The notes beneath the pieces were generated by a model. It saw only the letters and a list, made by a program, of their open reading frames with translations, was not told the origin of the DNA and made no database searches. A DNA stretch of 36,175 bases from Minisyncoccota bacterium (lineage in GTDB: Bacteria; Patescibacteriota; Minisyncoccia; Phycocordibacterales; DASSSU01), in the NCBI GenBank assembly GCA_035708305.1, contig DASSSU010000018.1, positions 1-36,175 of the forward strand, in the 5' to 3' direction. Position numbers and translations under genes: made by a program. Below, piece after piece: positions 8,093 through 34,993 of the stretch. The first letter of the stretch is position 1, and every line of letters begins with the position of its first letter.

Positions 8093-8150
8093 GTCACATA
8101 TTTTACTCTTATTGTTAAGTATAACAATAGTGTGGTATATTTCAATAGCG
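8093..8150 (-). promoter_or_regulatory. Candidate sigma70-like promoter, TTGAAA-16-TATACT read on the minus strand. An overlapping palindromic operator ttgtta-N4-taacaa sits at 8111..8126. Likely autoregulation of the XRE operon.
   Basis: On the minus strand: ttgaaa tataccacactattgt tatact taacaataagag...GTG. The inverted-repeat half-sites TTGTTA/TAACAA were seen directly. Confidence 0.4.
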
Positions 8151-8160
8151 CCTTTACACC

Positions 8161-8276
8161 CGCGCCCATTTCCTTTTCCATTCTGCGGTGGAGGGGGACA
8201 GGGGGAGGAGCCGCAAAAAAGATGCAAAGGGAAATGGGCGCGGGATGCGGCGCACGAGGTGAGCGGAGGCGTCTCG
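8161..8276. repeat. Right copy of the perfect 116-bp inverted repeat. The terminal palindrome ggcgtctc-gtca-gagacgcc spans the repeat boundary at 8266..8285.
   Basis: Exact reverse complement of 1..116. Followed by ~300 bp of GC-rich non-coding sequence. Confidence 0.9.
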
Positions 8277-8573
8277 TCAGAGACGCCGGAGCGAGCCGAG
8301 GGCGCACCGAAGCGTAGGACCACCACGCGATCGGAGCGTACGAGTTAATCAGAAGCCACCACGCGCTTCCGCGCGTGCGAAGTGGGTTCGAGCAAAGGTT
8401 AGTATTTCTGCACAAAACGAGTGCGGCGAGTTTTTGTTCCCGAGAGGAAGCCGCTCTACGGCTTCCGTGCAGGAATCGAAGCCCGATTGAGCGGATTTTG
8501 TGAGTGAAACGAAACAAAATCTCCAATCGGGATACTGCTCCTGTAAGGAGAGATCCTTGCCGAGGGCACCAAC

Positions 8574-8601
8574 AAAAAACCACACAAGATTGTGGTTTTT
8601 T
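8574..8601. terminator. Bidirectional rho-independent terminator: A6-ccaca-caagat-tgtgg-T7
   Basis: Hairpin flanked by an A-run and a T-run, 21 nt downstream of the glutaredoxin stop. It also closes the GC-rich non-coding region. Confidence 0.6.
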
Positions 8602-9342: not shown

Positions 9343-11877
9343 TTATTTTACAAGGCGCCAACTTCCTCCTTCGATCAGCGGAAGTGCTTTTTTATACTTC
9401 ATGGATTTAGTCTCCTTGCCATCCGTGATCTCCACCACATCATTTCGCCCGATCTTCTCTTCCGTCGCCGGTGAGTGACTTTTCTTGGTTGAAGCATCGG
9501 CTTTTCCTTCTTCGCCGCCCGCCTCGCGGAAACTTTTTTGCATTTCTTTCGCCTCCTGCTCTGCTTTGACAAACATGCCGCCGCCAATATTGCCAATGAG
9601 TCGGATGGTCTCGCTGCGGAAAGTGTCTTCCATGTCATGGAACATCTGCAAGCCTTCTTTCTTGTACTCCACGAGCGGATCACGCTGTCCGTACGCACGC
9701 AAGCCCACGGAAGAGCGCAAATACTCCATGGCTTCGAGATGGTCCATCCAGAGCATGTCCGTCAGCTGGAGGAAGAGCCGACGCACGAGTCCGAGAAAAT
9801 CTTCCTCACCAAGCTCGGCTTTTTTCTTCTCCACGAGTTTCGCGGCATCATCATCCCCCGCGATCAATTCATCCAAGAATTCACGGATAAAATCCATGTC
9901 ACCGAGCAAGATCTTGCGCCGCCGTTCGTAGATCTTGTTGCGCTGCTGGGCAAGCACGTTGTCGTACTGAAGCACGTTGCGGCGAGAATCGAAATGAAAC
10001 CCTTCGATCTTTGTCTGTGCGGTTTCGAGTGACCGTGAAATAATTTTGTTTTCGATCGGCTGATCTTCCGGAATTCCAAAGGTGCCCATCATCCGCTTGA
10101 TCGCATCGGCAGCAAAGACCCGCATGAGGGAATCCTCCAGTGAAACAAAAAATTGCGTTTCACCCGGATCACCCTGACGTCCTGAACGTCCGCGAAGCTG
10201 GTTGTCGATCCGCCGCGCTTCATGCCGCTCCGTTCCAAGCACAAAAAGCCCGCCAAGCTGCTTGATCTCCTCGTATGTTTCCTCTGTCCCGGGATTGCCG
10301 CCAAGTTTGATGTCCACGCCGCGCCCTGCGAGGTTGGTCGCGATCACCACGCTTCCTTTCTTCCCTGCCTGTGCAATGATCTCTCCTTCGTTTTCGTGGT
10401 TCTTGGCATTCAAAACCTGATGCGGAACGCCTTCTTTCTGCAAAAATGCCGAGAGAAGTTCGTTTTTCTCGATCGAAACCGTACCGATCAAAATCGGCTG
10501 ATTTTTTTCGTGCACTTCTTTTACCCGCGCCGCAATAGCTTTGAATTTTCCAATCTCTGTTTGGTAGATCAGATCGTTTTTGTCGATGCGCTGTACTGGC
10601 ACGTTCGTCGGCACTTCCGTCACATCAAGTCCATAGACTTTGTAAAATTCCTCACGCGACGTGCTTGCGGTTCCCGTCATGCCCGCAAGTTTTTTGTACA
10701 TGCGAAAATAGTTTTGAAACGTAATCGATGCAACCGTACGCGACTCCTTTTGAATCGTCACACCCTCTTTCGCCTCCACCGCCTGATGAAGCCCTTCCGA
10801 CCACCGGCGTCCCGGCTGAAGCCGCCCGGTAAATTCGTCTACGATGATGATCTCTCCATCGCGGATCACGTATTCTTTGTCTCGTTCAAAAAGCGCTTTC
10901 GCCCGCACAGCAGTTTCCAGGTGATGCACATCTTTGATCCCACCTTCGGTGTAAATATTTTCTACACCAAGGAGTTTCTCTGCCTTGGTAATGCCCTCAT
11001 CCGTAAGCTGAATAGCGCGAAGTTTTTCATCTACTTCATAATCCTCATCCGGCTTCAAACGCTCGGCAATTCGTGCGAACTTCACGTACAGATCTTCAGA
11101 CTCTCCGGAAATGGCAGAGATGATAAGCGGTGTTCTCGCTTCGTCGATCAAAATAGAGTCGATCTCGTCCACAATCGCGAAATGGTAATCACGCTGCACC
11201 AGTGCTTCCGACGCGTATGCGAGATTGTCGCGCAGATAGTCGAAGCCGAACTCGTTGTTCGTACCATACGTGATATCTGCCGCGTAGGCTTCCCGCCGCG
11301 TGCATGGACGCAAAAATTCATACTCTACTTTAAAAGACCCGAGTTCATCGCGCACCTCGTCGTCCTCCTTGCTTTTATGCTCGGCGTCGTAGAGATATGA
11401 GGACTCATGGTTGATCACGCCGACCGAAAGCCCGAGAAAAGCATAGATCTGTCCCATCCACACCGCATCACGCCGGGAGAGGTAATCATTCACCGTCACC
11501 ACATGCACTCCTTTTCCTTCGAGTGCATTTAAGTACACAGGAAGCGTTGCCACAAGCGTCTTTCCTTCTCCAGTACGCATCTCAGAAATATTTCCCTGAT
11601 GAAGCGCGATGCCTCCCATCAGCTGCACATCGTAATGTCGCTGGCCAAGCACACGCTTTGCTGTTTCGCGTACCACCGCAAACGCCTCCGGAAGAATGTC
11701 GTCCAGTGTTTCATTTTTGTTCAGCCGCGTTTGAAACTCTTTCGTCTTTTCGCGCAATTCCTCGTCCGAGAGTTTTTGTATCTCAGATTCAAGGGCGTTA
11801 ACTTTTTCCACCAGAGGACGCATCGTCTTTAGCGTCTTCTGTGTCCCTCCTCCAAACAGGTTTTTGAAAAGCTCCAT
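9343..11877 (-). CDS. secA: Preprotein translocase ATPase SecA
   Basis: 844 aa. MELFKNLFGG...TGEGKTLVATLPVYLNAL (Walker A in NBD1), DEAD-like helicase motifs, long helical scaffold domain. Confidence 0.95.
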   Translation of the reverse strand: MELFKNLFGGGTQKTLKTMRPLVEKVNALESEIQKLSDEELREKTKEFQTRLNKNETLDDILPEAFAVVRETAKRVLGQRHYDVQLMGGIALHQGNISEMRTGEGKTLVATLPVYLNALEGKGVHVVTVNDYLSRRDAVWMGQIYAFLGLSVGVINHESSYLYDAEHKSKEDDEVRDELGSFKVEYEFLRPCTRREAYAADITYGTNNEFGFDYLRDNLAYASEALVQRDYHFAIVDEIDSILIDEARTPLIISAISGESEDLYVKFARIAERLKPDEDYEVDEKLRAIQLTDEGITKAEKLLGVENIYTEGGIKDVHHLETAVRAKALFERDKEYVIRDGEIIIVDEFTGRLQPGRRWSEGLHQAVEAKEGVTIQKESRTVASITFQNYFRMYKKLAGMTGTASTSREEFYKVYGLDVTEVPTNVPVQRIDKNDLIYQTEIGKFKAIAARVKEVHEKNQPILIGTVSIEKNELLSAFLQKEGVPHQVLNAKNHENEGEIIAQAGKKGSVVIATNLAGRGVDIKLGGNPGTEETYEEIKQLGGLFVLGTERHEARRIDNQLRGRSGRQGDPGETQFFVSLEDSLMRVFAADAIKRMMGTFGIPEDQPIENKIISRSLETAQTKIEGFHFDSRRNVLQYDNVLAQQRNKIYERRRKILLGDMDFIREFLDELIAGDDDAAKLVEKKKAELGEEDFLGLVRRLFLQLTDMLWMDHLEAMEYLRSSVGLRAYGQRDPLVEYKKEGLQMFHDMEDTFRSETIRLIGNIGGGMFVKAEQEAKEMQKSFREAGGEEGKADASTKKSHSPATEEKIGRNDVVEITDGKETKSMKYKKALPLIEGGSWRLVK

Positions 11878-11933
11878 AATATTACGTCAAAAGATAAACA
11901 ATAGATGCAATTATACCATGGAAAGAACCAAAG

Positions 11934-11960
11934 AAAAACCCCTCAAAATAAGGGGTTTTT
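11934..11960. terminator. Bidirectional rho-independent terminator: A5-cccct-caaaata-agggg-T5
   Basis: Lies between the K-rich small gene (stop 11980) and the secA start (11877). Confidence 0.6.
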
Positions 11961-11979
11961 CGAAGAGAACTCGGAAAAA

Positions 11980-12126
11980 TTATTTCTTCTTTCGAGTGGT
12001 CTTTTTTGCAGCTTTCTTTTTTGCTGGAGCTTTTTTCTTTGCAACCTTTTTCTTGGCCACTTTCTTTTTTGCTACTTTTTTCTTTGCAACCTTTTTCTTT
12101 GAAGCAGCTTTCTTTTTTGCTGGCAT
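11980..12126 (-). CDS. Lysine/alanine-rich small basic protein (histone H1-like / KKAA-repeat DNA-binding protein): MPAKKKAASKKKVAKKKVAKKKVAKKKVAKKKAPAKKKAAKKTTRKKK
   Basis: I reverse-complemented and translated this by hand: ATG at 12126..12124, TAA at 11982..11980. At 48 aa it is below the ORF-track cutoff. The track's 83-aa ORF on the same strand in another frame is Cys-rich and less credible. A terminator follows immediately. Confidence 0.55.
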   Translation of the reverse strand: MPAKKKAASKKKVAKKKVAKKKVAKKKVAKKKAPAKKKAAKKTTRKKK

Positions 12127-12427
12127 AAAACAAAAATTATTTATTCCCTCAAAAAATTTTTTAAAAAATAAAAAAACATTTTGAAGGGGGCTTATTAAAA
12201 ATCAGCGAAAGCTTCGACCTCGGTTCAAATCTTTTTTGCGATCAAAATGAAACGCAAAACTTTTTCTAAACCTTCGCAACGATCTGCATTAATTATCATT
12301 CAATTAAAAATTAATACAATATTTTTTTACAAAAAAATTGTGGATAACTTTTTATTTTTTAAAAAAAATTTTTGTAAAAGTTTTTTATTTTTTATTCCGC
12401 AAGATACTTTTAAATTTTTTTTAAGCA

Positions 12428-12484
12428 AGAAAAAATCTCCGGCATTGCTTTTCGAAGTTTGTGGGCTTCACGAGAAAAGCAATG
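12428..12484 (-). terminator. Probable murB terminator: 11-bp stem cattgcttttc/gaaaagcaatg enclosing the 20-nt core GAAGTTTGTGGGCTTCACGA, followed on the minus strand by a T-run
   Basis: Stem 12443..12453/12474..12484, loop 12454..12473. The A-run at 12428..12436 on plus gives a T-run on the minus strand. Confidence 0.5.
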
Positions 12485-12516
12485 ACAGAGATTTTTTCTT
12501 TTTTCTCTCACAATAT

Positions 12517-12606
12517 CGAGAACGAGAAGCTTCCTTCTTTCAAGACACCGCTCCAAGGGCGCTTGCCCGGTCTTAGTGTCTTGAAAGAAGGAAGCTTCTC
12601 GTTCGA
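12517..12606. repeat. Long near-perfect hairpin. A 28-bp perfect stem (12521..12548 / 12576..12603), plus 4 bp beyond a 2-nt bulge, around a 27-nt loop that holds a small gggc/gccc hairpin.
   Basis: I reverse-complemented the arms directly: aacgagaagcttccttctttcaagacac pairs with gtgtcttgaaagaaggaagcttctcgtt. The right arm ends 20 nt from the murB stop at 12626. Confidence 0.7.
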
Positions 12607-12625
12607 ATATTTCCAAGATGGGTTT

Positions 12626-13648
12626 TCAAAAAAACCGCACTTCGTATTCAAGTTCAACAGCCGTCTTGTCTTTCACACACGCACGCACTTCTTCCGAAAA
12701 ATTTCGTACATCCGCCGCACTTCCCTCGCCATAGTTTACGATTGCCAGTGGCTGTTTCGGGTAAGTCCCCACATCGCCTTTTCGGTACCCACGCATGCCG
12801 CACACATGATCAATCAGCCACGCCGCTGGGACTTTGTAGCCTTGCTCCACCGTGTAGAACGGCATTTCAGCATACGTTTTCTGCAGTTGTGCAAAAGCGC
12901 TTTCAGAAAGAATAGGGTTTTTGAAAAAAGAGCCAAGTGTCCCCAAAACTGCCGGATCAGGGAGCTTGTTTTTTCGGATCGTGATCACGGCCTGGCGCAC
13001 ATCCGCAAGTGTCGGATGATCGTTCTTTTCTGCTTCAAAATACGCACGGACATCTTTGTAGTTCGTATTGATCGGAGCGTTCTTTTGTAGACGAAACAAC
13101 ACCCGCGTGACGACGAAATGCTTTCCTTCTTCTGTTTTGAAAAAACTGTTGCGATAAGAGAAGTTGCATGCTTCGTTTGAAAACTTTTTTACGACAAGCG
13201 TTCGAGTGTCCAGCGCTTCCACTTCATGAATCGTTTCTTTCACTTCCGTTCCGTACGCGCCGATATTTTGCACCGGACTCGCGCCAACCGTACCAGGAAT
13301 CCAAGAAAGGTTTTCAATACCACCAAGATTCCTTCTCACCGTTTCCGCCACAAACCCATCCCAGTTTTCTCCCGCACCGACACTTACGACAGCATTCCCC
13401 TTTTCGTCTTCATCTCCAAACTCCATCCCGAGCATTTGATTGCGGATGATCAACCCTGGAAAGCCATCATCAGAAAAATACATGTTCGACCCTCCGCCGA
13501 TGGTGAGCAGCGGAAGCTTTTTTTCTTTTGCAAAACCCACCGCTTCTTTCAGATCCGCGAGATTTTCCACGGTACAAAAAAACCTCGCAGGTCCGCCGAC
13601 ACGCAAGGTTCCAAAATTTTTGAGCAGAACGTTTTCCTCCATTTTCAT
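12626..13648 (-). CDS. murB: UDP-N-acetylenolpyruvoylglucosamine reductase
   Basis: 340 aa. FAD-binding PCMH domain (TIGGGSN), MurB C-terminal domain (GxGSFFKNP...GYRxGD). Confidence 0.9.
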   Translation of the reverse strand: MKMEENVLLKNFGTLRVGGPARFFCTVENLADLKEAVGFAKEKKLPLLTIGGGSNMYFSDDGFPGLIIRNQMLGMEFGDEDEKGNAVVSVGAGENWDGFVAETVRRNLGGIENLSWIPGTVGASPVQNIGAYGTEVKETIHEVEALDTRTLVVKKFSNEACNFSYRNSFFKTEEGKHFVVTRVLFRLQKNAPINTNYKDVRAYFEAEKNDHPTLADVRQAVITIRKNKLPDPAVLGTLGSFFKNPILSESAFAQLQKTYAEMPFYTVEQGYKVPAAWLIDHVCGMRGYRKGDVGTYPKQPLAIVNYGEGSAADVRNFSEEVRACVKDKTAVELEYEVRFF

Positions 13649-14957: not shown

Positions 14958-16087
14958 ACAGACCGGAACAGTTCCTTGACATCAATTATGGAGCGGCAAA
15001 GATCTTGAGCAGATTACAAAAATTCTACCTTGGATCTTTAATTGTCTTTCTTGCCATATCTTTTTTAGGAGGTTTCCTCTGGTTTCTTGGTGTACAAGCT
15101 GGACAGGTAATTCTTGGAATCAACATTGCCTATTTTGCCTCTAGCCTTCGAATTGTAAAACCAGATCAAGTCGGAGCACTCATCGTACTTGGATATTCTA
15201 TCTCCAGTCTTCAACGGGGGCTACACTTTGCTCCTTTCTTCATTAGTGACTTCCCAACAGAACCACTCCCCGTGATAGAGGAAGAATTCCCAGGAGAACC
15301 GGAAAGAGTTTGGCACGAGGATGCACCCATTCCCACTATCCCAGAAATTAATAGGTTCGGAAAAATGGTCCCTTACTATGTTTATCCAGTACGGGTTACT
15401 ACCGGACGTCCTGACTATGGGAATGAGGGGGGTGGCGCATCAACCGGGAATCCATTAGATATTCAAGGCACAGTAGAACCAGTGTTTTTTGTTCGTTTTC
15501 AGGTGAAATCACATGAGTACCTTGAAAAATTCATTCCAAACATTGGGACACTCTATGAAGTAGTGAGACAGATTCAAGACACGATGGTTCGTGTACTTAC
15601 CTCACAATTTAGCCAAAGAACCATACAGAAAATCATCGAGGACATTGATCAGATTAATACTGAACTCCAAAAAAAGATAGAAGAAATAACCGGAGACTGG
15701 GGTATTGAAGTGCGGGACGCCTATATAAAAACGGTCGGACTCAGTCATACGCTCAATACCGCTCTTCGAGATGTCGGCGTAGAAAAAACCAAAGCACTGG
15801 CGACTATCATTGCAGCAGAAGCAGAGAAAAAGAAACTCATCGAAGAAGGAACTGGTAACGCAAAGGCCAGGGAGCTTTTGTTGCAAGGAGAAGGAGCTGG
15901 TATTAAGTCCATAGCAGACGCGCTGCAGATACAGCAAGGAGAGGTGATGGAACTTATCCGCACAAAAGCTGCACAAGATGCACTCAAAGAAATTGATCAC
16001 CTTAATATGTTTACTGGCAACATGCAGGGTTTGCCTGGACTTTTCGGTCTTGCCGATGCGTTAAAAAATAGAGGAACGTCAGAATGA
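14948..16087 (+). CDS. SPFH/band-7 (stomatin/prohibitin-like) membrane protein with a ~90-aa insertion. The start may be the TTG at 15005.
   Basis: N-terminal transmembrane helix, then an SPFH core: GTLYEVVRQIQDTMVRVLTSQFSQRTIQKI...GIEVRDAYIKTV...ALATIIAAEAEKK. Overlaps the next gene by 4 nt. Confidence 0.8.
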   Translation: MYKYRPEQFLDINYGAAKILSRLQKFYLGSLIVFLAISFLGGFLWFLGVQAGQVILGINIAYFASSLRIVKPDQVGALIVLGYSISSLQRGLHFAPFFISDFPTEPLPVIEEEFPGEPERVWHEDAPIPTIPEINRFGKMVPYYVYPVRVTTGRPDYGNEGGGASTGNPLDIQGTVEPVFFVRFQVKSHEYLEKFIPNIGTLYEVVRQIQDTMVRVLTSQFSQRTIQKIIEDIDQINTELQKKIEEITGDWGIEVRDAYIKTVGLSHTLNTALRDVGVEKTKALATIIAAEAEKKKLIEEGTGNAKARELLLQGEGAGIKSIADALQIQQGEVMELIRTKAAQDALKEIDHLNMFTGNMQGLPGLFGLADALKNRGTSE

Positions 16088-17001: not shown

Positions 17002-17032
17002 TTCTTTTTTGGCTGCTTTTGTGCAGTCAAAC

Positions 17033-17067
17033 AAAAACCCGAAGCACGAAGCTTCGGGTTTCTTTTT
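17033..17067. terminator. Bidirectional rho-independent terminator: A5-cccgaagc-acgaa-gcttcggg-TTTCTTTTT
   Basis: Between the convergent genes ending at 17001 (+) and 17113 (-). Confidence 0.65.
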
Positions 17068-17112
17068 GTTTGTTTTTTCAGCTCTGTCTCCGTTTTTTTA
17101 GAATCAACACGC

Positions 17113-17364
17113 TTAGGTAAACAGCGTAACAATCGTGTCAACGATGAAGTTCATGATGGCGAACACAGAAAGCATGATCACCATCCCGATCACTCCCCAC
17201 AGCATGTGCCGAGAAGCGTTCTGTCTGTTCTCCGGTGTGTCATTAAACAGAAACTGCACAATTCCGATAAAGAAGACGACCACCGCAAGAGCAAACAGGA
17301 GAACAATCAACGGATTTACGATCACGTGATTGATCTTGTTGATCAGATCGGTGATATTGTCCAT
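17113..17364 (-). CDS. Small two-transmembrane membrane protein, paralog 1 of a five-member family (no signal peptide)
   Basis: 83 aa. TM1 LIVLLFALAVVVFFIGIV, a short basic loop, TM2 LWGVIGMVIMLSVFAI. The pattern is shared with the four upstream paralogs. Confidence 0.6.
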   Translation of the reverse strand: MDNITDLINKINHVIVNPLIVLLFALAVVVFFIGIVQFLFNDTPENRQNASRHMLWGVIGMVIMLSVFAIMNFIVDTIVTLFT

Positions 17365-17398
17365 AGGAATATGCTAGAAAGTTCAAACAACCATTGGG

Positions 17399-17791
17399 TT
17401 ACGCACCCGGGATAGTTGGCGTCAATTGCTGAACGTTTGTAGGAGCAGTTACAGTTGTTGCACCGCCGTTGTTTACGCCAAACGTGTCTTGTAAAATCTT
17501 TACCAATCCCCAGACAGACACAATCACAAAAAGAGCAATAATACCCCAAATCATGATTGAAATACCTTCCGATCGTGCACCGGCATCTCCTGACTTCAGG
17601 ATAAACATTGCCAATCCATAGAAGAAGAAAAGAACAGCAAGTGTGATGAGGATCGGGATAATAATGTTGATAAGGTTGCCGATAATTCCAAGGATACCTG
17701 CGAGCCCACCACTACCACCTGACGTTTGTGCAAAAGCAAATCCCGGAGTAACCGCCAAAAGCGCTAACGCTCCATACAGAATTTTTTTCAT
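17399..17791 (-). CDS. Small two-transmembrane secreted/membrane protein, paralog 2 (signal peptide MKKILYGALALLAVTPGFAFA)
   Basis: 130 aa. Conserved core ILITLAVLFFFYGLAMFILKSGDAGARSEGISIMIWGIIALFVIVSVWGLVKILQDTF. Confidence 0.65.
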   Translation of the reverse strand: MKKILYGALALLAVTPGFAFAQTSGGSGGLAGILGIIGNLINIIIPILITLAVLFFFYGLAMFILKSGDAGARSEGISIMIWGIIALFVIVSVWGLVKILQDTFGVNNGGATTVTAPTNVQQLTPTIPGA

Positions 17792-17967
17792 ACGTAATTC
17801 GATAAAAAATAATAATTTGCGACCTAATATTAATTTATCCGAAACGCGCGCAAATTGGGAGCGTTTCTTTATTCAACATCATAAAATGTTCATCCAAATT
17901 CCGCAACTCAAACTGTGGATAATCTCTTTCTAAGAGGAAGCAGGCGACAAAACAACTCTCAGTTACC

Positions 17968-18243
17968 TTATACACTCGGCGCCGGAAAGACCTGAACTGA
18001 TTGATTGACGTTGAAGGTATCCTGCAAAACAAACACAAGCCCCCAAAGAGAGACCATCACAAACAGTGCAATGATACCATAAATCATCAGGTTGATTCCC
18101 TGTTTCCTTGATTCTTCATTCCCTGCCGCGAACATAAAACGAACGATACCATAGAAAAAAAACAGAACCGTGAGTGCAATAAGAAGTGCAATGATGGTCT
18201 GGAGAATGCTTCCAGCACTGTAGAGCAAACTGCTGATATCCAT
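17968..18243 (-). CDS. Small two-transmembrane membrane protein, paralog 3 (no signal peptide)
   Basis: 91 aa. LLIALTVLFFFYGIVRFMFAAGNEESRKQGINLMIYGIIALFVMVSLWGLVFVLQDTF. Confidence 0.65.
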   Translation of the reverse strand: MDISSLLYSAGSILQTIIALLIALTVLFFFYGIVRFMFAAGNEESRKQGINLMIYGIIALFVMVSLWGLVFVLQDTFNVNQSVQVFPAPSV

Positions 18244-18263
18244 AGAAGTAAAAAATAGAAAAA

Positions 18264-18635
18264 TTAAAAATCAGGAATTTGAGGAAGCGTGGAATATGTG
18301 GATCCAGCAGGACCAAAAACAGAATACTGGATGATCGCCACCAGCCCCCAAATAGAAATCATGACAAAAATAGCGATAATACCGTAGAGCATGTACTTCC
18401 CACCCTCGGTCCGCGCTTTCGGGTCTCCGGCAGAGAAAAGGTACTTTGCGATCCCCCAAAAAAAAGCCACCACTGAGAGCGCAATAAGAAGCGGAATAAC
18501 TGCCCCGATCATGCCCAGGAGGTTGTCCACCAAACCAGTAAAATCAATGGCAAAAGCAAAAAATGGAGTAAAGAGAGAAGCAAAAAGAAGAAAGGGCAAG
18601 AAATTTTTCTTTGAAGGTTTTTTATGTGTGTTCAT
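18264..18635 (-). CDS. Small two-transmembrane secreted/membrane protein, paralog 4 (signal peptide ...FTPFFAFA)
   Basis: 123 aa. LLIALSVVAFFWGIAKYLFSAGDPKARTEGGKYMLYGIIAIFVMISIWGLVAIIQYS. Confidence 0.65.
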   Translation of the reverse strand: MNTHKKPSKKNFLPFLLFASLFTPFFAFAIDFTGLVDNLLGMIGAVIPLLIALSVVAFFWGIAKYLFSAGDPKARTEGGKYMLYGIIAIFVMISIWGLVAIIQYSVFGPAGSTYSTLPQIPDF

Positions 18636-18661
18636 GGTTTTAATTACTCTGGTTACTTCCT

Positions 18662-19027
18662 CTACAACTGAGCGATGGTCTGAGCAATGGCATGCGCCAG
18701 AACTTTTGCTCCGAGAATAATCGCCGCGCCAATCACTACCGCCACAAAGGCGCTGCGAGCGCGTGTGAGCTTCTGCGTATCGCCCTGTGCGGTGATAAAC
18801 ATAAAGCCAGAGATAATGATAAAAATCACGATCACCGGGACCGCGATCTGTATCACGATAGTCAAAAGCGCGTCGATAAAGTCCGGAAGAGTGCTAATGC
18901 TTGTGAGAGGATTCTCAAAGGTCATTGCACCAGCAAAAAGCACGCTGGGGAAAAAGAGAGCGAGCAATGAAAGTAAAAAGTACCAAATATGCCGTGTTTT
19001 CTTTTTCCAATTTTGCAGCTTTTTCAT
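18662..19027 (-). CDS. Small two-transmembrane secreted/membrane protein, paralog 5 (most divergent). The start is taken at MKKLQNWKKK..., a signal-peptide-like N-terminus.
   Basis: The track ORF extends to 19108 and would overlap the solute-binding-protein gene by 44 nt. The ATG at 19027 gives a K-rich n-region, an h-region and an AGA cleavage-like site. Core VIVIFIIISGFMFITAQGDTQKLTRARSAFVAVVIGAAIILGAKVL. Confidence 0.55.
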   Translation of the reverse strand: MKKLQNWKKKTRHIWYFLLSLLALFFPSVLFAGAMTFENPLTSISTLPDFIDALLTIVIQIAVPVIVIFIIISGFMFITAQGDTQKLTRARSAFVAVVIGAAIILGAKVLAHAIAQTIAQL

Positions 19028-19064
19028 AAAAAATATTGTAACCGCTTCCGTAAGAAAAAACAAT

Positions 19065-20429
19065 TTATAGCTGTGCATTAGCGCTCGGCAGCGCTCCACC
19101 ACCCGCACTCACCGCCGGAGGAGGTGCAACACTCTTCAGAAGAAGATCCATTTCTTTTTGCATCATCTGAATCGCACCAGCTACGGTAAGCGCTCCTGAG
19201 TTCACATTATCGATCGCTTCCTGGAAAATGCGCGATGTCTGGTCTGGATCCGGGTCACGCCACCCGCGGCTGATGATGGCGGAATTGTAGAAAACTGTTC
19301 GGAAAGCATCCGTCGGCCTGGTTGCATAGAGATCGCGGCGAACTGGCGGGAGATACGTCGCCTGAGAAAGCGCCTGCGAGAACTTCGGCCCGGCGAGGGT
19401 AAGTGCCACGATGTAGGCAGAGTTGATGTTGTGAGACTGCTTCAAAATCGCCACTCCAAAAATCTTGCCGATAGTTGCGGAGAACTTTCCATCCCGTACC
19501 TGCGGCACCTGGGCGACATCGAAGTCGAGAAGCGGGTTCTTGCGCTGGATATCCGCATACTCGCTCGCATAGCCGAAGTAGATCGCGAGCTTTTGGTTGG
19601 TAAACATATCCAAAGAATCCGGCAAGGCGCGATTCCAGGAGTAGATATCAGGCTGGGTCGGATCGGCGAAATTGGTAAAAAAAGTCAGAGCATCACCTGC
19701 GGGAGGAATACTACCGCCCTTATCTCCGATGAGCGTGGCAGTTGTTACTCCCTGATTCAACTCCACGATCGGGTTGCCCAACTGAAGCATCAGCATCGCC
19801 AAAATATCTTTTGCATGAGTGACGTTTTGGTATTCTCCAAGTGCTACCGCGCTTTGCGTGATGTTGTCATCCTGTGTTTTTTCCGTAAGAATCGGCGCAA
19901 GCTTATAGAGCTCATCCCAATATTGAGGGGGACGGACAATTCCCTTTTGCGCAAACATGTCACGGTTCCAATACATCACCATCGGATCTATATAAAACGG
20001 TAGAGCAAGAATACCGTCCGAACGAAGGTAGATTTCTCCCTGTTGGAGATAGGCGTTTCGAAAATCACGCTCGGAAATAACACTGAACGGGATAACCTGC
20101 AGACTCTGCTGGCGCTTCAGAATCAAATCCTGTGGGATCAGTACCAGATCAGGACCCTGGCCGATCGCCAGAGCCTCCACCAGATCGTTATCAAAATTTG
20201 TGGCGTCTTTCTCCACATACTTCACCTGATTCGGGGGATAAAATTTTCCGATCAGCTGACTCATGGACTGCTGCGGAAAGGTTCCCCAGATGGTAACCGT
20301 TCCTTGGACATCCCCGCCTTCTTTCGCAGCTTTATGTGGTTTTGGAATAAGTCCAGAAAAAACCAAAATGCCGCCGACAAAAAACGCGATACAAATTCCT
20401 GTCACAAGTAATGGAAAACCGGTTTTCAT
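19065..20429 (-). CDS. Extracellular solute-binding protein family 1 (sugar-type ABC transporter substrate-binding protein) with an N-terminal transmembrane anchor. Orphan: no permease or ATPase is adjacent.
   Basis: 454 aa. MalE-like features TVTIWGTF, ALPFYIDPMVMYWNRDMF, PPQYWDEL. Confidence 0.8.
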   Translation of the reverse strand: MKTGFPLLVTGICIAFFVGGILVFSGLIPKPHKAAKEGGDVQGTVTIWGTFPQQSMSQLIGKFYPPNQVKYVEKDATNFDNDLVEALAIGQGPDLVLIPQDLILKRQQSLQVIPFSVISERDFRNAYLQQGEIYLRSDGILALPFYIDPMVMYWNRDMFAQKGIVRPPQYWDELYKLAPILTEKTQDDNITQSAVALGEYQNVTHAKDILAMLMLQLGNPIVELNQGVTTATLIGDKGGSIPPAGDALTFFTNFADPTQPDIYSWNRALPDSLDMFTNQKLAIYFGYASEYADIQRKNPLLDFDVAQVPQVRDGKFSATIGKIFGVAILKQSHNINSAYIVALTLAGPKFSQALSQATYLPPVRRDLYATRPTDAFRTVFYNSAIISRGWRDPDPDQTSRIFQEAIDNVNSGALTVAGAIQMMQKEMDLLLKSVAPPPAVSAGGGALPSANAQL

Positions 20430-20956
20430 GCTTGTTTTTCAAAAATAATTCCGTAATGAAATGCTCCCGCCGGGATATGCTTTCGATAAGAAAAACCTCC
20501 CTGCTCACAGAGAAGCCGCGCATCACGGGAGTCTAAAACATTTTCCGGATGCGGACCCAAATGTCCAAAAGATTCGCTCCAGTCGATCAAAAGAAGTCGA
20601 CCGCGAGGCTTGAGCGTGCGCCTGATTTCCTGCAGCAGAACAGTCTTGTACATACACTGAAAAAAGACGTTGGATGCGATCGCGAAATCCAAAATACCGT
20701 CTCCAATCTTTGACCCGCCCGGCATTTCAAGATCTCCGTGCAAAGTATCCACGTGAGCAATGCCTTGATCTGAAAGCGTATTACGGAGTCTCACAAGAAG
20801 GTTTTTCTGCACATCAATGGCATAAACCCGGCCGTAATCCTTGACCACCCTTGCCGCCTCAAGGGCATATGCACCGGAGCCGGTTCCAAAATCGCCGACA
20901 TGCATTCCCTCAAGAACACCCGCACGCATAATATTTTCTCGTGGATTGGTAAACAT
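20426..20956 (-). CDS. Class I SAM-dependent methyltransferase (motif I VGDFGTGSG)
   Basis: 176 aa. Overlaps the solute-binding-protein gene by 4 nt. No in-frame ATG, GTG or TTG exists upstream before a TGA, so the ATG at 20956 stands. Confidence 0.8.
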   Translation of the reverse strand: MFTNPRENIMRAGVLEGMHVGDFGTGSGAYALEAARVVKDYGRVYAIDVQKNLLVRLRNTLSDQGIAHVDTLHGDLEMPGGSKIGDGILDFAIASNVFFQCMYKTVLLQEIRRTLKPRGRLLLIDWSESFGHLGPHPENVLDSRDARLLCEQGGFSYRKHIPAGAFHYGIIFEKQA

Positions 20957-20980
20957 CTTGCAAGTTACATGTCTTAAAAA

Positions 20981-21044
20981 CCTCCTCTGAGAAAATCTTT
21001 TTTCGTGAAGCCCACAAACTTCAAAAAGAATTTCTCAGAGGAGG
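20981..21044 (-). other. Hairpin with a 14-bp stem (cctcctctgagaaa/tttctcagaggagg) whose 36-nt loop contains the same 20-nt core as the murB terminator loop, in reverse orientation. It is followed on the minus strand by TTTTT, 19 nt before the methyltransferase ATG.
   Basis: Arms and core (21003..21022 = reverse complement of 12454..12473) read directly. The GAGGAGG in the 3' arm would be sequestered in the stem. Confidence 0.5.
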
Positions 21045-21343
21045 GCTGACGTTCTAAAAAAAGAAATAAACTACGAACTTACAGAAACTTCAAATGAAGC
21101 TCCTGTTCGTCAAAGTGAACAGACTTTCATTTCTGAGTACAAGTGATTCAAAATACAGTCTGTTCTAGAACAGGGTTTCAAAATTGGATGAGATGTCCAC
21201 CTGAGGCGGATCTACCTCAGGTGCGACAAGGAAAAAATGGATTTTTAATCATGAGCCGTACTCCTTCGTACGGTGAATGTTAAAAATTATTTTTTTGACA
21301 CAGCAGATTGCCAATTTTGGAAGCCTGCAGGTAAAGTATATCA

Positions 21344-23818
21344 TTAAAGGAAAAGTATGCTTGCGACGCTATCCCCAGTCCGTGGCTTCATCACCCGTAC
21401 TCCCTGCGTCGATCTTCCCAGTGTCGAAACTTCATCCACGCCGAGCCGGATCACCTGTCCTTTTTTCGAAACCGCCACAAGTTCATCTTCTTCACCCTCC
21501 AGGACTTTGATTCCCACAAGGTCACCGGTTTTTGCCGTTACGGCTGCGGTTTTGATGCCGGACCCGCCGCGCTTCTGTACTTTGTACTCTGAAAGCGGCG
21601 TTTTCTTTCCATAGCCGTGTTCGCTGATCGTCAAAAGCTTGAAGTCGTTGTTGTTCCCTTTGATCACATCCACACCAACCAGTTCATCGCCTTTTCTCAG
21701 GGTCAGTGCTTTTACTCCGCCAGCCAAACGCCCCATCTGCCGCACATCCGACTCCAAGAAACGCACCGACTGCCCCTTTGCCGTTGCGAGTACGACCGCA
21801 TCTCCTTTCGCCACCCAAAGTGCCGAGAGAAGTTCGTCGCCATCTGAAAGCTTGATCGCAATAATTCCGCTCTTTCGTACATCGTGGAAACTGTCCCCTG
21901 CGGCTTTTTTCACCACGCCTTTTTTCGTTACCATGAGGAGCGAGTGCGTGGAACCGTCCATGTCTTTTGGAACAGCGAGAATAGAGGTTGTTTTTTCATC
22001 GCTTCCAATGGAGAGGAAATTCATGATCGACTTTCCTTTCGTTGATCGTCTTCCTTCCGGCACCTCGTACATTTTCATCTGGTATGCCTTGCCTTTGTCG
22101 CTGAAGAAGAGGAGGTTGGAATGCGTAGAAGTAGAAAGAAACATCGTCACAAAATCCTCTTCTTTGGTATTCAGGTCCACCACGCCGACGCCGCCGCGCT
22201 TTTGTTTTTTGTACTCGTTTGGATTTGTACGCTTGATATAACCACCGTTCGTGAAGACCAAAATGCTCTCTTCTTCCGCCACGAGATCTTCCACGGAAAA
22301 AGACTTCGGCCCGGAAGCGACAATTCTGGTGCGGCGCGGATCACCATACTTTTTCTCCGCTTCGACAAGCTCATCTTTGATCACGGCAAGAATTTTCTTT
22401 GGACTTGCCAAGAGTGCCTCAAGTTCTTTGATCAATTTCAAAAGCTCTTTGAGTTCGTCTTCGATCTTCTTGCGTTCCAACCCGGCAAGTTTCTGAAGCC
22501 GCATTTCGAGGATGGCGGTTGTCTGCCGGTCGGAAAACTGAAACTTCTTCATCAAGTTTGCGTGCGCGGTTGGCGTGTCTTTGGATGCTTTGATCACCTT
22601 GATCACTTCGTCGATATGGTCCAGTGCTTTTTTCAAACCTTCGAGAATGTGGGCACGGTCACGAGCTTTTGCCAAGTCAAATTCCGTGCGACGGCGCACC
22701 ACGATCTGACGGTGCGAGAGAAATTCTGTAAGTGCTGAATGGAGTGAGAGCGTCTGGGGTACGCCGTCTACCAGCGCCACCATGTTCATATGGAAAGTGC
22801 TCTCCAATTCGGTGTGTTTGTAGAGATAGTTCAAAACTTTTTGCGGCTGCACGCCGGACTTGAGATCGATCACCACGCGAATGTCAGTCGTGGATTCATC
22901 GCGAAGCCCTTTCACTCCTTCAAGCTTTTTCTCGCGCACCAAATCAGCGATCTTCGAGATCATTTCAGACTTGTTCACACGATATGGGATGGACGTTATC
23001 ACGATCTGCTCGCCGCCACCTTTCGTTTCTACGATCTCCGCCTCTCCTCGGCAGACGATACCGCCGCGACCAGAGGCATACGCATGGGCAATATCTTTTT
23101 TGCCGAAAATAATTCCTCCCAGTGGGAAATCCGGTCCTTTGACGAACTGGAGCAGATCTTCCGTCGTAGCGTTTGGCTGATCGATCAAATGAATCGTCGC
23201 CTCCACCACTTCGCTCAAGTTGTGCGGCGGAATGTTCGTCGCCATCCCTACGGCAATACCAAGCGTTCCGTTTAAAAGTGTGTTTGGAAGGGCGGAAGGA
23301 AGAACGGTCGGCTCTTTGTTTTGCCCGTCGTAGTTCGGCACAAAATCCACGGTGTTCTTTTCCAAATCTTTCAGAAGCTCGCCGGAAATGGCGGACATTT
23401 TCGCCTCCGTGTAACGCATGGCTGCGGCCGAGTCTCCGTCTACAGAACCGAAGTTTCCCTGCCCAATCACGAGTGGATACCGATACCCAAACGGCTGTGC
23501 CATCTTGACCATCGCATCATACACCGATGCGTCACCGTGCGGGTGGTATTTTCCGAGTACATCTCCGACTACCGCCGCGGATTTTCGAAAGCGCGCACCG
23601 GAAGTCAGACCCATTTCGCTCATGGTATAGAGAATGCGGCGGTGCACCGGCTTCAAACCATCGCGAATATCCGGAAGCGCACGGGTGGTGATCACAGACA
23701 TGGCGTAGTCCAAATACGACTCACGCATTTCGGTGCTGATGGAAACTGGAAGCAGTCCGCCTTCCGGGCGGTTATCTCCAAGATTGTTGTTTGAATCGCT
23801 GTTGGTTTTCTTTGCCAT
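21344..23818 (-). CDS. gyrA: DNA gyrase subunit A
   Basis: 824 aa. The N-terminal catalytic region ([16 protein letters not shown], active-site tyrosine region) and C-terminal beta-pinwheel repeats are recognisable. Confidence 0.95.
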
Positions 23819-29051: not shown

Positions 29052-29160
29052 ACTATATTATTCTTCACTGAAGTGTTTAATCGTCTTTAAGTATAACAAG
29101 AGAGGTATGGGAAAGGAACGCTTACAGTGGATAACTTCCTTACTTTATTCCCCGCCCTCC

Positions 29161-29189: not shown

Positions 29190-29305
29190 TTGAGCAAATT
29201 TGTCTTGATGGTATCGAGAAAATTTTTATCAACTTTTTTGGAAATAATCCCGCTTTTTGAAAATTCCTGTACCGATAAAGCGGAATTCCGAAAAAACATT
29301 CAATT

Positions 29306-30547: not shown

Positions 30548-30591
30548 CGAACAAATAAAAAATCCCCGAGTGGGGATTTTTTATTTGTTCG
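30548..30591. terminator. Strong bidirectional terminator: 20-bp palindromic stem cgaacaaataaaaaatcccc/ggggattttttatttgttcg, loop gagt
   Basis: Between convergent rpsA (+) and the S9 peptidase (-). Confidence 0.7.
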
Positions 30592-34748: not shown

Positions 34749-34763
34749 TCGAAAAATAAATTA

Positions 34764-34802
34764 CTAAAACAAAACTCCGTTTCTCGCGGAGTTTTGTTTT
34801 AG
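34764..34802. terminator. Rho-independent terminator: 16-bp stem ctaaaacaaaactccg/cggagttttgttttag, loop tttctcg
   Basis: 16 nt after the rnr stop. Confidence 0.7.
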
Positions 34803-34993
34803 TAAAAAATTTCCATTCTCAACTTGCTCATACATTCCCATTTTCTTGAGAACGCTTCCAAATAACTTTTGGAGTGATGTTCTTCCCTCCAACAAGACGG
34901 ATCTCATCAATTTCTCCGTAGGTATTTGGAATGGAAATTTGGAAAGGCGTGTCTTTGCTACCAAATTGCCTCACCTGTTGTTTGTCGCTCTTG

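Follow-up and report, generated by a model that had tools for sequence, protein, structure and literature searches.

The window, by which we mean the whole stretch of DNA that was analysed, is the complete 36,175-bp contig of one MAG. Two of its intergenic regions are considered here, and the genes neighbouring both are all on the minus strand. The first region lies between murB (12626-13648) and a 48-aa lysine/alanine-rich ORF (11980-12126), beyond which lies secA (9343-11877). The second lies between gyrA (21344-23818) and a gene for a class I SAM methyltransferase (20426-20956), followed by a solute-binding protein gene (19065-20429). Each region contains a long hairpin, delimited from its complementary arms and its predicted fold. 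In the first, hairpin S1 (12427-12500) has the A-tract/stem/T-tract layout of a bidirectional terminator. It comes second in a pair of long hairpins behind murB, at a distance of 126 nt from the stop codon, and the Lys-rich ORF lies 301 nt further on. The original prediction had named it the murB terminator; S1 does lie after murB, but the label is loose, since another hairpin, I1 (12520-12604), intervenes. In the second region, hairpin S2 (20981-21044, minus strand) is found 300 nt after the gyrA stop codon and 24 nt before the methyltransferase ATG (20956), with a tract of five U directly after it on the gene strand (20976-20980).

Hairpin I1, also recognised from its arms and fold, starts 22 nt after the murB stop and consists of a perfect 29-bp stem (~35 bp counting the outer pairs) and a 27-nt loop, with a folding energy of -63 kcal/mol (z = -11). 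The self-complementary sequence GAAGCTTC is found within its arms, and its loop has a CAAG/CTTG mini-stem of its own. The sequence of this loop is not repeated in the window and is unrelated to the 20-mer described below, and no U-tract follows the hairpin. I1 and S1 together form a block of ~190 nt that is absent from relatives.

Several other features of the contig were recorded. The Lys-rich ORF (MPAKKKAASKKKVAKKKV...; 11980-12126, minus strand) has its own promoter region and terminator, and its position between murB and secA is kept in two relatives (L003 and L004); by composition only, it may encode a histone H1-like or basic small protein. Sequences fitting the DnaA-box consensus, TTATCCACA / GTTATCCAC(A/T), are located at 12339-12347, 17914-17922 and 29126-29134 in promoter-proximal A/T-rich regions, among them those upstream of the Lys-rich ORF and of a 1297-aa ORF. 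The motif is conserved at equivalent places in L003 (~11124), L004 (~11061) and a third relative, L005 (~5837 and ~5948), and seems to be a promoter-associated motif of the whole clade. The methyltransferase and solute-binding protein genes are followed downstream by five small T4SS-pilin/TrbC-like ORFs (17113-19108, minus strand), an arrangement conserved in L005, L009 and L053. At the other end of the contig, a 117-bp exact inverted repeat occupies positions 1-117 and 8160-8276, the contig beginning precisely at one copy, and each copy has a 15-bp stem around 56 nt. The ~8.2-kb segment between these repeats is low in GC over part of its length (34-40% at 2-7 kb vs 45-51% elsewhere) and carries genes for a class I aminoacyl-tRNA synthetase, a carbamoyltransferase, an AAA protein and an HTH protein, together with two ORFs without Pfam match. 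The repeat pair may delimit an invertible or mobile segment, or may be a repeat that broke the assembly. Finally, between the HTH and glutaredoxin genes there is a G+C-rich, ORF-poor stretch of ~450 nt (8150-8600, plus strand) with a clean terminator at its end (8574-8601), in which we found no Rfam family, tRNA or tmRNA; it is possibly an unclassified non-coding RNA.

The 20-mer GAAGTTTGTGGGCTTCACGA occurs exactly at 12454-12473 on the plus strand, in S1, and its exact reverse complement at 21003-21022, in S2. The observation from which this work started, that the same 20-nt core lies in two hairpins in inverted orientation, is thus confirmed at both sites. Allowing up to three mismatches yielded no third site in the window. 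None of 100 dinucleotide-preserving shuffles reproduced a two-match outcome, in agreement with the earlier claim that the identity of the cores is not due to chance. To delimit the shared unit, a sensitive local alignment was made between the whole intergenic regions (12184-12626 vs 20957-21343) in both orientations. A single block is common to the two, ATT-CTTTTY-core-RAAAAG, with a score of 55. After masking this module the best score fell to 22, which is the level of shuffled sequences (mean 21.6 +/- 2.5), leaving no residual intergenic similarity; the outer stems of the two hairpins are therefore unrelated, as had been claimed. Since only this block aligns, the homologous unit is larger than the 20-mer and amounts to a module of ~32 nt, at 12448-12479 on the plus strand and 20997-21028 on the minus strand, an extent supported by comparison of the two apices and, for the first copy, by its fold.

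The consensus of the module is CTTTTY-GAAG-TTTGTGGG-CTTC-ACGA-RAAAAG, the copy in S1 being CTTTTC-GAAG-TTTGTGGG-CTTC-ACGA-GAAAAG and the copy in S2 the CTTTTT ... AAAAAG variant. It is composed of 6-bp outer pairs, a 4-nt bulge, a 4-bp mini-stem and an 8-nt loop. When compared in the same sense, the copies are identical at 30 of 32 positions, the identity taking in CTTTT to the left of the core and AAAAG to its right, and the sole two differences form one compensatory pair beside the core (C-G vs T-A). The borders of the module are ambiguous, as the data would agree just as well with an insert of 20 nt into a CTTTTY|RAAAAG target. On its own, the module forms a weak hairpin (-3.4 to -6.6 kcal/mol), and none of its 11-mers occurs in the window beyond the two sites.

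The hairpins that host the module are longer than was first described. The arms of S1 (12427-12453 / 12474-12500) span 27 nt with 2 mismatches (93% complementary), so that the 11-bp stem initially assigned to this site (12443-12453 / 12474-12484) was an understatement, and those of S2 (20981-21002 / 21023-21044) span 22 nt (95% complementary), what had been taken for a 36-nt loop being itself mostly paired. When folded as RNA from either strand, S1 and S2 each form one continuous long stem whose apex comprises the 4-nt bulge (ACGA/UCGU), the GAAG/CUUC mini-stem, which the original prediction had anticipated and which is present in both, and the 8-nt apical loop. Folding energies range from -33 to -36 kcal/mol, with z-scores of -5.4 to -7.1. 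The module lengthens the stems to ~31 bp, interrupted by the 4-nt bulge, and their upper part is A/U-rich. We found no meaningful recurrence in the window of the stem arms of S1 or S2 as guide-like or target-like copies of other sequences.

Both hairpins combine a stable stem-loop with a U-tract 3′ of a gene, as intrinsic terminators do, and are putative terminators. At S1 there are U-rich tracts on both strands: a T-rich tail, TTTTCTCTC, comes next on the plus strand, and the tract TTTTTTCTT lies within the arm on the minus strand. A simple terminator scanner lists neither hairpin because of its loop limit of 8 nt. If the core is read as GAAG...ACGA, a U-rich tract follows both hairpins, and it is in the opposite sense that the stem of S1 is slightly better as RNA. 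We then removed the module in silico. S2 is then reduced to a perfect 14-bp stem, CCUCCUCUGAGAAA/UUUCUCAGAGGAGG, closed by a 4-nt loop (UUAU) and followed by UUUUU on the gene strand, and S1 to a hairpin with a 4-nt loop (UGCA) whose stem is set between an A-tract and a U-tract. The contig's other terminators at 30548-30591, 34761-34805, 17028-17068 and 11933-11961, which are strong gene-end hairpins, are built in the same way. As deletion of the module leaves ordinary hairpins with 4-nt loops, the module sits exactly at the dyad centre of both. Hence, the suggestion that these structures are something other than a generic terminator does not hold for the hosts, which without the module are generic terminator-type hairpins like others on the contig. 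The module is nested within them and does not replace them.

The position of S2 constrains its role. A promoter has no room after it, so that S2 must be transcribed within the leader of the methyltransferase gene and, with the ATG only 24 nt away, full efficiency as a terminator is excluded. Its 3′ arm holds the only SD-like sequence (GAGGAGG) upstream of this gene. The arm ends in GAGGAGG; ten nt past it we noticed a mini-ORF made of a start and a stop codon only (ATG TAA, 20970-20965), and a further 8 nt on lies the methyltransferase ATG, which has no SD of its own. The layout of this segment (20954-20987, minus strand) suggests sequestration of the SD combined with reinitiation or translational coupling. 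The 300-nt spacer between gyrA and S2 (21045-21343, minus strand) contains a promoter-like TTGGCA-17-AATAAT (21314-21286) and several small hairpins, with neither a convincing ORF nor an Rfam match, and may be a leader or a small RNA ending at S2.

The structure of S1 is also present in an independent assembly of the same organism, made from run SRR25158513. Two of its Logan contigs, L002 (12450-14187) and L012 (11230-12461), are 100% identical to the window and together confirm S1, each carrying the core plus one of the arms, which are complementary to each other. This assembly breaks inside the S1 core, where the two contigs overlap by 12 nt (12450-12461). The end of L002 lies 30 nt into the module and could be taken for a repeat branch at k=31, and hence for the trace of a third copy, an interpretation that we rejected from the position of L012. 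Indeed, an overlap of 12 nt implies that 18 consecutive 31-mers are missing, which fits a coverage gap at a hairpin; the repeat-branch model would need an asymmetric shared block of 48 nt, which makes a gap the simpler account. The break is thus explained most simply by a coverage gap at a strong hairpin. A search for S2 by way of the methyltransferase and solute-binding protein genes returned no record of either gene.

The original prediction had proposed that the 20-mer is a recognised motif. As far as our searches reach, their outcome is largely negative: exact matches are absent from the representative genomes of 185,579 species and from IMG/VR, BLAST against plasmid and phage records gave nothing relevant, and JGI metagenomes yielded a single match (L001), where we estimate that roughly one is expected by chance. 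This match was rejected as a true copy, since the contig is high-GC and unrelated and shows no significant local hairpin (z about -0.9). A 16-mer lacking the ACGA found 40 loci in IMG/VR, which were likewise discarded, being related phage coding-sequence clusters with flanking stems of at most 5 bp and no hairpin context. On the contig, a fuzzy search (up to 5 edits) returned only the two known copies. An unfiltered covariance model of the module (R1) scored these at 66.8 and 66.1 bits, and its next match, 15.9 bits at 29245-29288, was discarded as an unrelated A/T-rich hairpin. The fuzzy search and R1 found no module in ~83 kb of relatives' loci either. Translations of the module in all open frames gave no candidate among 5.8 billion predicted proteins, which is weak negative evidence only. 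Rfam at gathering thresholds had no match in the window, and sensitive scans at the hairpins returned only sub-threshold generic miRNA-precursor models, reflecting the shape of a long hairpin. Readings of the element as a K-turn, an attC site, a dif/Xer site, a DNA-uptake sequence or a ribozyme were dismissed, as the defining motifs, judged by eye, are absent.

To assess conservation we turned to the orthologous loci. Homologues of MurB and of the methyltransferase assign the organism to the Paceibacterota/Parcubacteria (CPR), and its nearest other relatives are ~50-55% identical in these two proteins. The order of murB, the A/T-rich promoter region, the Lys-rich ORF and secA is kept in L003 and L004, and there the murB stop directly meets the promoter region, so that the I1 and S1 block is lineage-specific. 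The gyrA, methyltransferase, solute-binding protein and pilin-like genes are kept in other relatives (L005-L009 and L053), where gyrA is followed by plain terminators with short loops and nothing resembling the core is seen. The closest MurB relative (L056, 55% identity) has a contig that stops 27 nt after murB and is thus uninformative, and a locus search with MurB in the representative genome collection confirmed no relatives. The expected conservation at orthologous loci is therefore absent at both sites, in relatives that are distant (~50% protein identity). Based on such relatives and on a single contig of the genome, these results speak neither for nor against two of the options in the original prediction, a protein-binding site and a small-RNA target.

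One of these relatives, L003 (MurB 51% identical), contains a pair of structures of its own: E1 (11379-11496) has a 19-bp stem around an 80-nt interior and E2 (15930-16050) a perfect 27-bp stem around a 67-nt interior. Their interiors are homologous and in inverted orientations, with a local alignment score of 48 vs 14.2 +/- 2.4 for shuffles (maximum 26), and their closing stems (19 and 27 bp) are unrelated to each other. The cores are ~25% diverged and share a branched fold of ~67 nt that is backed by several compensatory double changes. They fold better in one sense (-29.3 vs -19.9 kcal/mol), in which each is placed 37-56 nt ahead of a start codon, that of secA or bacA. No Rfam family matches them. 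E1 and E2 are candidates for a new leader RNA or for a mobile hairpin element. Judged from its diverged but visibly selected core, the pair appears to behave as a selected structured RNA, unlike a recent insertion. E1 and E2 have the architecture of S1 and S2 with a different core, which shows that a conserved core within unrelated, perfect stems can arise in paralogous structured RNAs too.

We tentatively favour the view that the module is a lineage-specific small dispersed palindromic repeat that was copied, at the DNA level, into the apices of terminators. Here, a self-complementary unit of ~32 nt, non-autonomous and REP/MITE-like in kind, would have been copied into the 4-nt loop, at the dyad centre, of two unrelated and pre-existing terminator-type hairpins. 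As the ends of the module pair with each other, the host stems are extended coaxially instead of being disrupted, so that S1, after murB, and S2, in the gyrA-methyltransferase spacer, can keep working and the insertion would be tolerated. Insertion into a symmetric target also accounts for the opposite orientations of the copies. The unit could have spread by transposition aimed at hairpin tips, or by templated repair of breaks occurring there. A perfect core beside wholly unrelated stems is to be expected of a recent copy placed in different hosts and normally not of slow divergence, which is why we regard copying as a more probable origin of the pair than divergence of the stems. Furthermore, the two copies are oppositely oriented relative to the gene strand; together with the better stem of S1 in the sense that lacks the shared trailing U-tract, this means that no single RNA sense is favoured, and a sense-specific function would seem improbable. 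The favoured view also draws on the ordinary hairpins that remain once the module is deleted, on the absence of the feature from relatives and of the 20-mer from the representative genomes, and on a size, an extragenic location and a use of both orientations that agree with small palindromic repeats such as REPs. The mobile mini-element listed among the options of the original prediction comes close to this small repeat, but the contig encodes no transposase and the copies number two. Indeed, no transposase or recombinase was found on the contig, with no transposase-like Pfam match among 30 scanned ORFs. This lack of a mobility gene and the lack of a visible target-site duplication speak against the favoured reading, as may the compensatory difference between the copies, which may denote selection on pairing. 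The weakness of the isolated module as a hairpin, its ambiguous borders and the parallel of E1 and E2 count against it as well. With only two copies known, a repeat family is not demonstrated.

Several other explanations have to be weighed against copying of a repeat. S1 and S2 might be paralogous functional RNA hairpins, in which the apex serves as a site for a protein or processing enzyme or as part of a regulatory hairpin, and in which pairing of the closing stems alone was selected while their sequence drifted. We consider this rather unlikely, yet it draws on real features of the data: the only two differences in 32 nt are compensatory (C-G vs U-A in RNA), S2 sits in the methyltransferase leader with its 3′ arm sequestering the only SD-like sequence, a U-rich tract follows both hairpins when the core reads GAAG...ACGA, and E1 and E2 offer a parallel, with a homologous structured core, unrelated stems, compensatory changes and a location near start codons. 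A 100% identical 20-mer next to dissimilar stems is nevertheless hard to obtain by divergence alone. Moreover, measured against the local gene strand, the two cores point in opposite directions. Were the site sense-specific, S1 would have to be transcribed antisense to murB, and no gene lies there. The lack of conservation at orthologous loci or in public data, and of an Rfam family at threshold, argues in the same direction. An unlikely alternative at the DNA level is that of a one-off event of ectopic templated repair or gene conversion, which would have copied one apex into the other through A/T-rich microhomology, with neither a family nor a function. It agrees with the finding of exactly two copies in all the sequence searched, with the near-perfect identity (30/32), which indicates a recent event, and with the contig's lack of a mobility gene. 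The tips of hairpins and cruciforms are the point at which SbcCD-type nucleases cleave, and the junctions lie at the dyad centres, where such tips would form. On the other hand, a single copying event leaves the origin of the first copy unexplained and needs two more coordinated changes afterwards to produce the compensatory difference, and I1 and the long-stem structures with large interiors in relatives suggest a recurrent process.

The inverted arrangement of the copies raises another prospect, that of a kissing-loop pair acting in trans, in which a hairpin of the murB 3′-UTR and one of the methyltransferase leader, both transcribed from the minus strand, act as antisense partners and their pairing could open S2 and free the SD. 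The minus-strand RNAs do present complementary 8-nt apical loops, CCCACAAA / UUUGUGGG, with a duplex energy of -10.3 kcal/mol (-35.7 kcal/mol for the complementary 20-nt cores), no base of the S1 loop is paired in the ensemble, and one of the loops begins with UUUG, in keeping with the YUNR U-turn motif. Bulges in the upper stem, as seen here, are typical of recognition hairpins of antisense RNAs of the CopA/CopT type, and the SD-like GAGGAGG lies in the 3′ arm of S2. However, complementarity of this kind arises automatically between inverted copies of any repeat and provides no independent evidence. Both hairpins are also very stable alone, with a cofold energy that equals the two monomer energies added together, relatives in which both gene arrangements are kept show no conservation, and we know of no functional link between murB and the methyltransferase operon. 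We thus see little prospect of such a pair. Least credible of all is a chance match, or an assembly artefact that placed one loop in two hairpins. The independent assembly covers S1 only and not S2, and it breaks within S1, which would leave some room for an artefact. Against this, the shuffles gave no such match, two independent Logan contigs carry the core with the left or the right arm of S1, and gene order across both sites agrees with that of relatives. In addition, the perfect runs in the arms are shorter than usual assembly k-mers, which makes the orientation of the loops unambiguous.

More speculatively, and with a low probability in our estimation, S1 and S2, perhaps I1, and E1 and E2 of L003 could represent a class of Paceibacterota elements in which a short conserved core is set, in either orientation, in locus-specific, perfectly paired long stems. 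Its members would be either miniature mobile units of ~32 nt, which would be the smallest known and would target terminator hairpin tips, or RNAs with a leader or processing role and with long closing stems that are actively kept perfect. Should the module prove multi-copy across the whole genome, it would join the small number of dispersed repeats reported from CPR bacteria, whose genomes are very small and poor in repeats, and would be an unusual one in nesting at terminator hairpin tips, with a bearing on how non-coding DNA is gained and tolerated in such genomes. If the apex were instead a selected RNA, it would represent an uncharacterised regulatory or processing signal beside essential genes (murB, secA, gyrA). 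As it stands, the module is a two-copy, lineage-private repeat without demonstrated function.

Comparison with known systems helps to place this repeat. Antisense systems of the CopA/CopT and RNAI/RNAII type are mostly cis-antisense, transcribed from one locus. S1 and S2 resemble CopA/CopT-type RNAs in having stem-loops with complementary loops of 7-8 nt, bulges in the upper stem and a YUNR-like loop start, but their complementarity, which is computed only, is a plain product of inverted repeat copies. With intrinsic terminators the module-free hairpins share stems followed by U-tracts and, in S1, an upstream A-tract; they depart from them, once the module is in place, in their ~31-bp stems with a 4-nt bulge and, for S2, in lying 24 nt before a start codon. 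MITEs measure ~50-500 bp, their terminal inverted repeats are conserved, and they show direct target-site duplications. Like them, and like Correia elements and SPRITEs, the module would be a non-autonomous dispersed intergenic repeat with inverted ends that forms hairpins in transcripts, SPRITE being a repeat that resembles a Rho-independent terminator (PMC3184786). The copies differ from MITEs in that only the 6-bp CTTTTY/RAAAAG ends are common to both, the long inverted repeats (27 and 22 nt) being unrelated, and in that no direct target-site duplication is found, the flanks read in the same sense being TG|CA in S1 and TT|AT in S2.

Insertion aimed at extragenic hairpin-forming DNA has a precedent in IS1397, ISKpn1, IS621 and ISPpu9/10, which insert specifically into palindromic units (PMC1525189). 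Those elements are full IS with a transposase, whereas the module has 32 nt and no transposase on its contig, and its targeting of loop centres would be deduced from two cases only. Closest in appearance are the REPs, which measure ~35 bp (range 21-65; PMC3184786), are G+C-rich and usually present in more than 100 copies per genome (PMC2817692), often in BIME arrays, and have a conserved tetranucleotide of the GTAG type at their start and an association with RAYT (Y1) transposases (PMC3333891). The module differs in that it begins with CTTTTY, has A/T-rich ends without GTAG, and is nested inside other hairpins, whereas REPs stand alone. On the 36-kb contig it is known from two copies, which form no array and from which I1 differs in sequence, and no RAYT is encoded among the 30 ORFs of the contig scanned with Pfam. 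REPs are often located at gene ends and are able to act on the ends of transcripts. As in REPs and BIMEs, the module is short, extragenic, imperfectly palindromic and present in both orientations: its 32 nt fall within the 21-65 bp of such elements, it is intergenic at both sites, and it folds as stem-bulge-stem-loop. With modest confidence, the module can therefore be assigned to the broad kind of small dispersed palindromic repeats.
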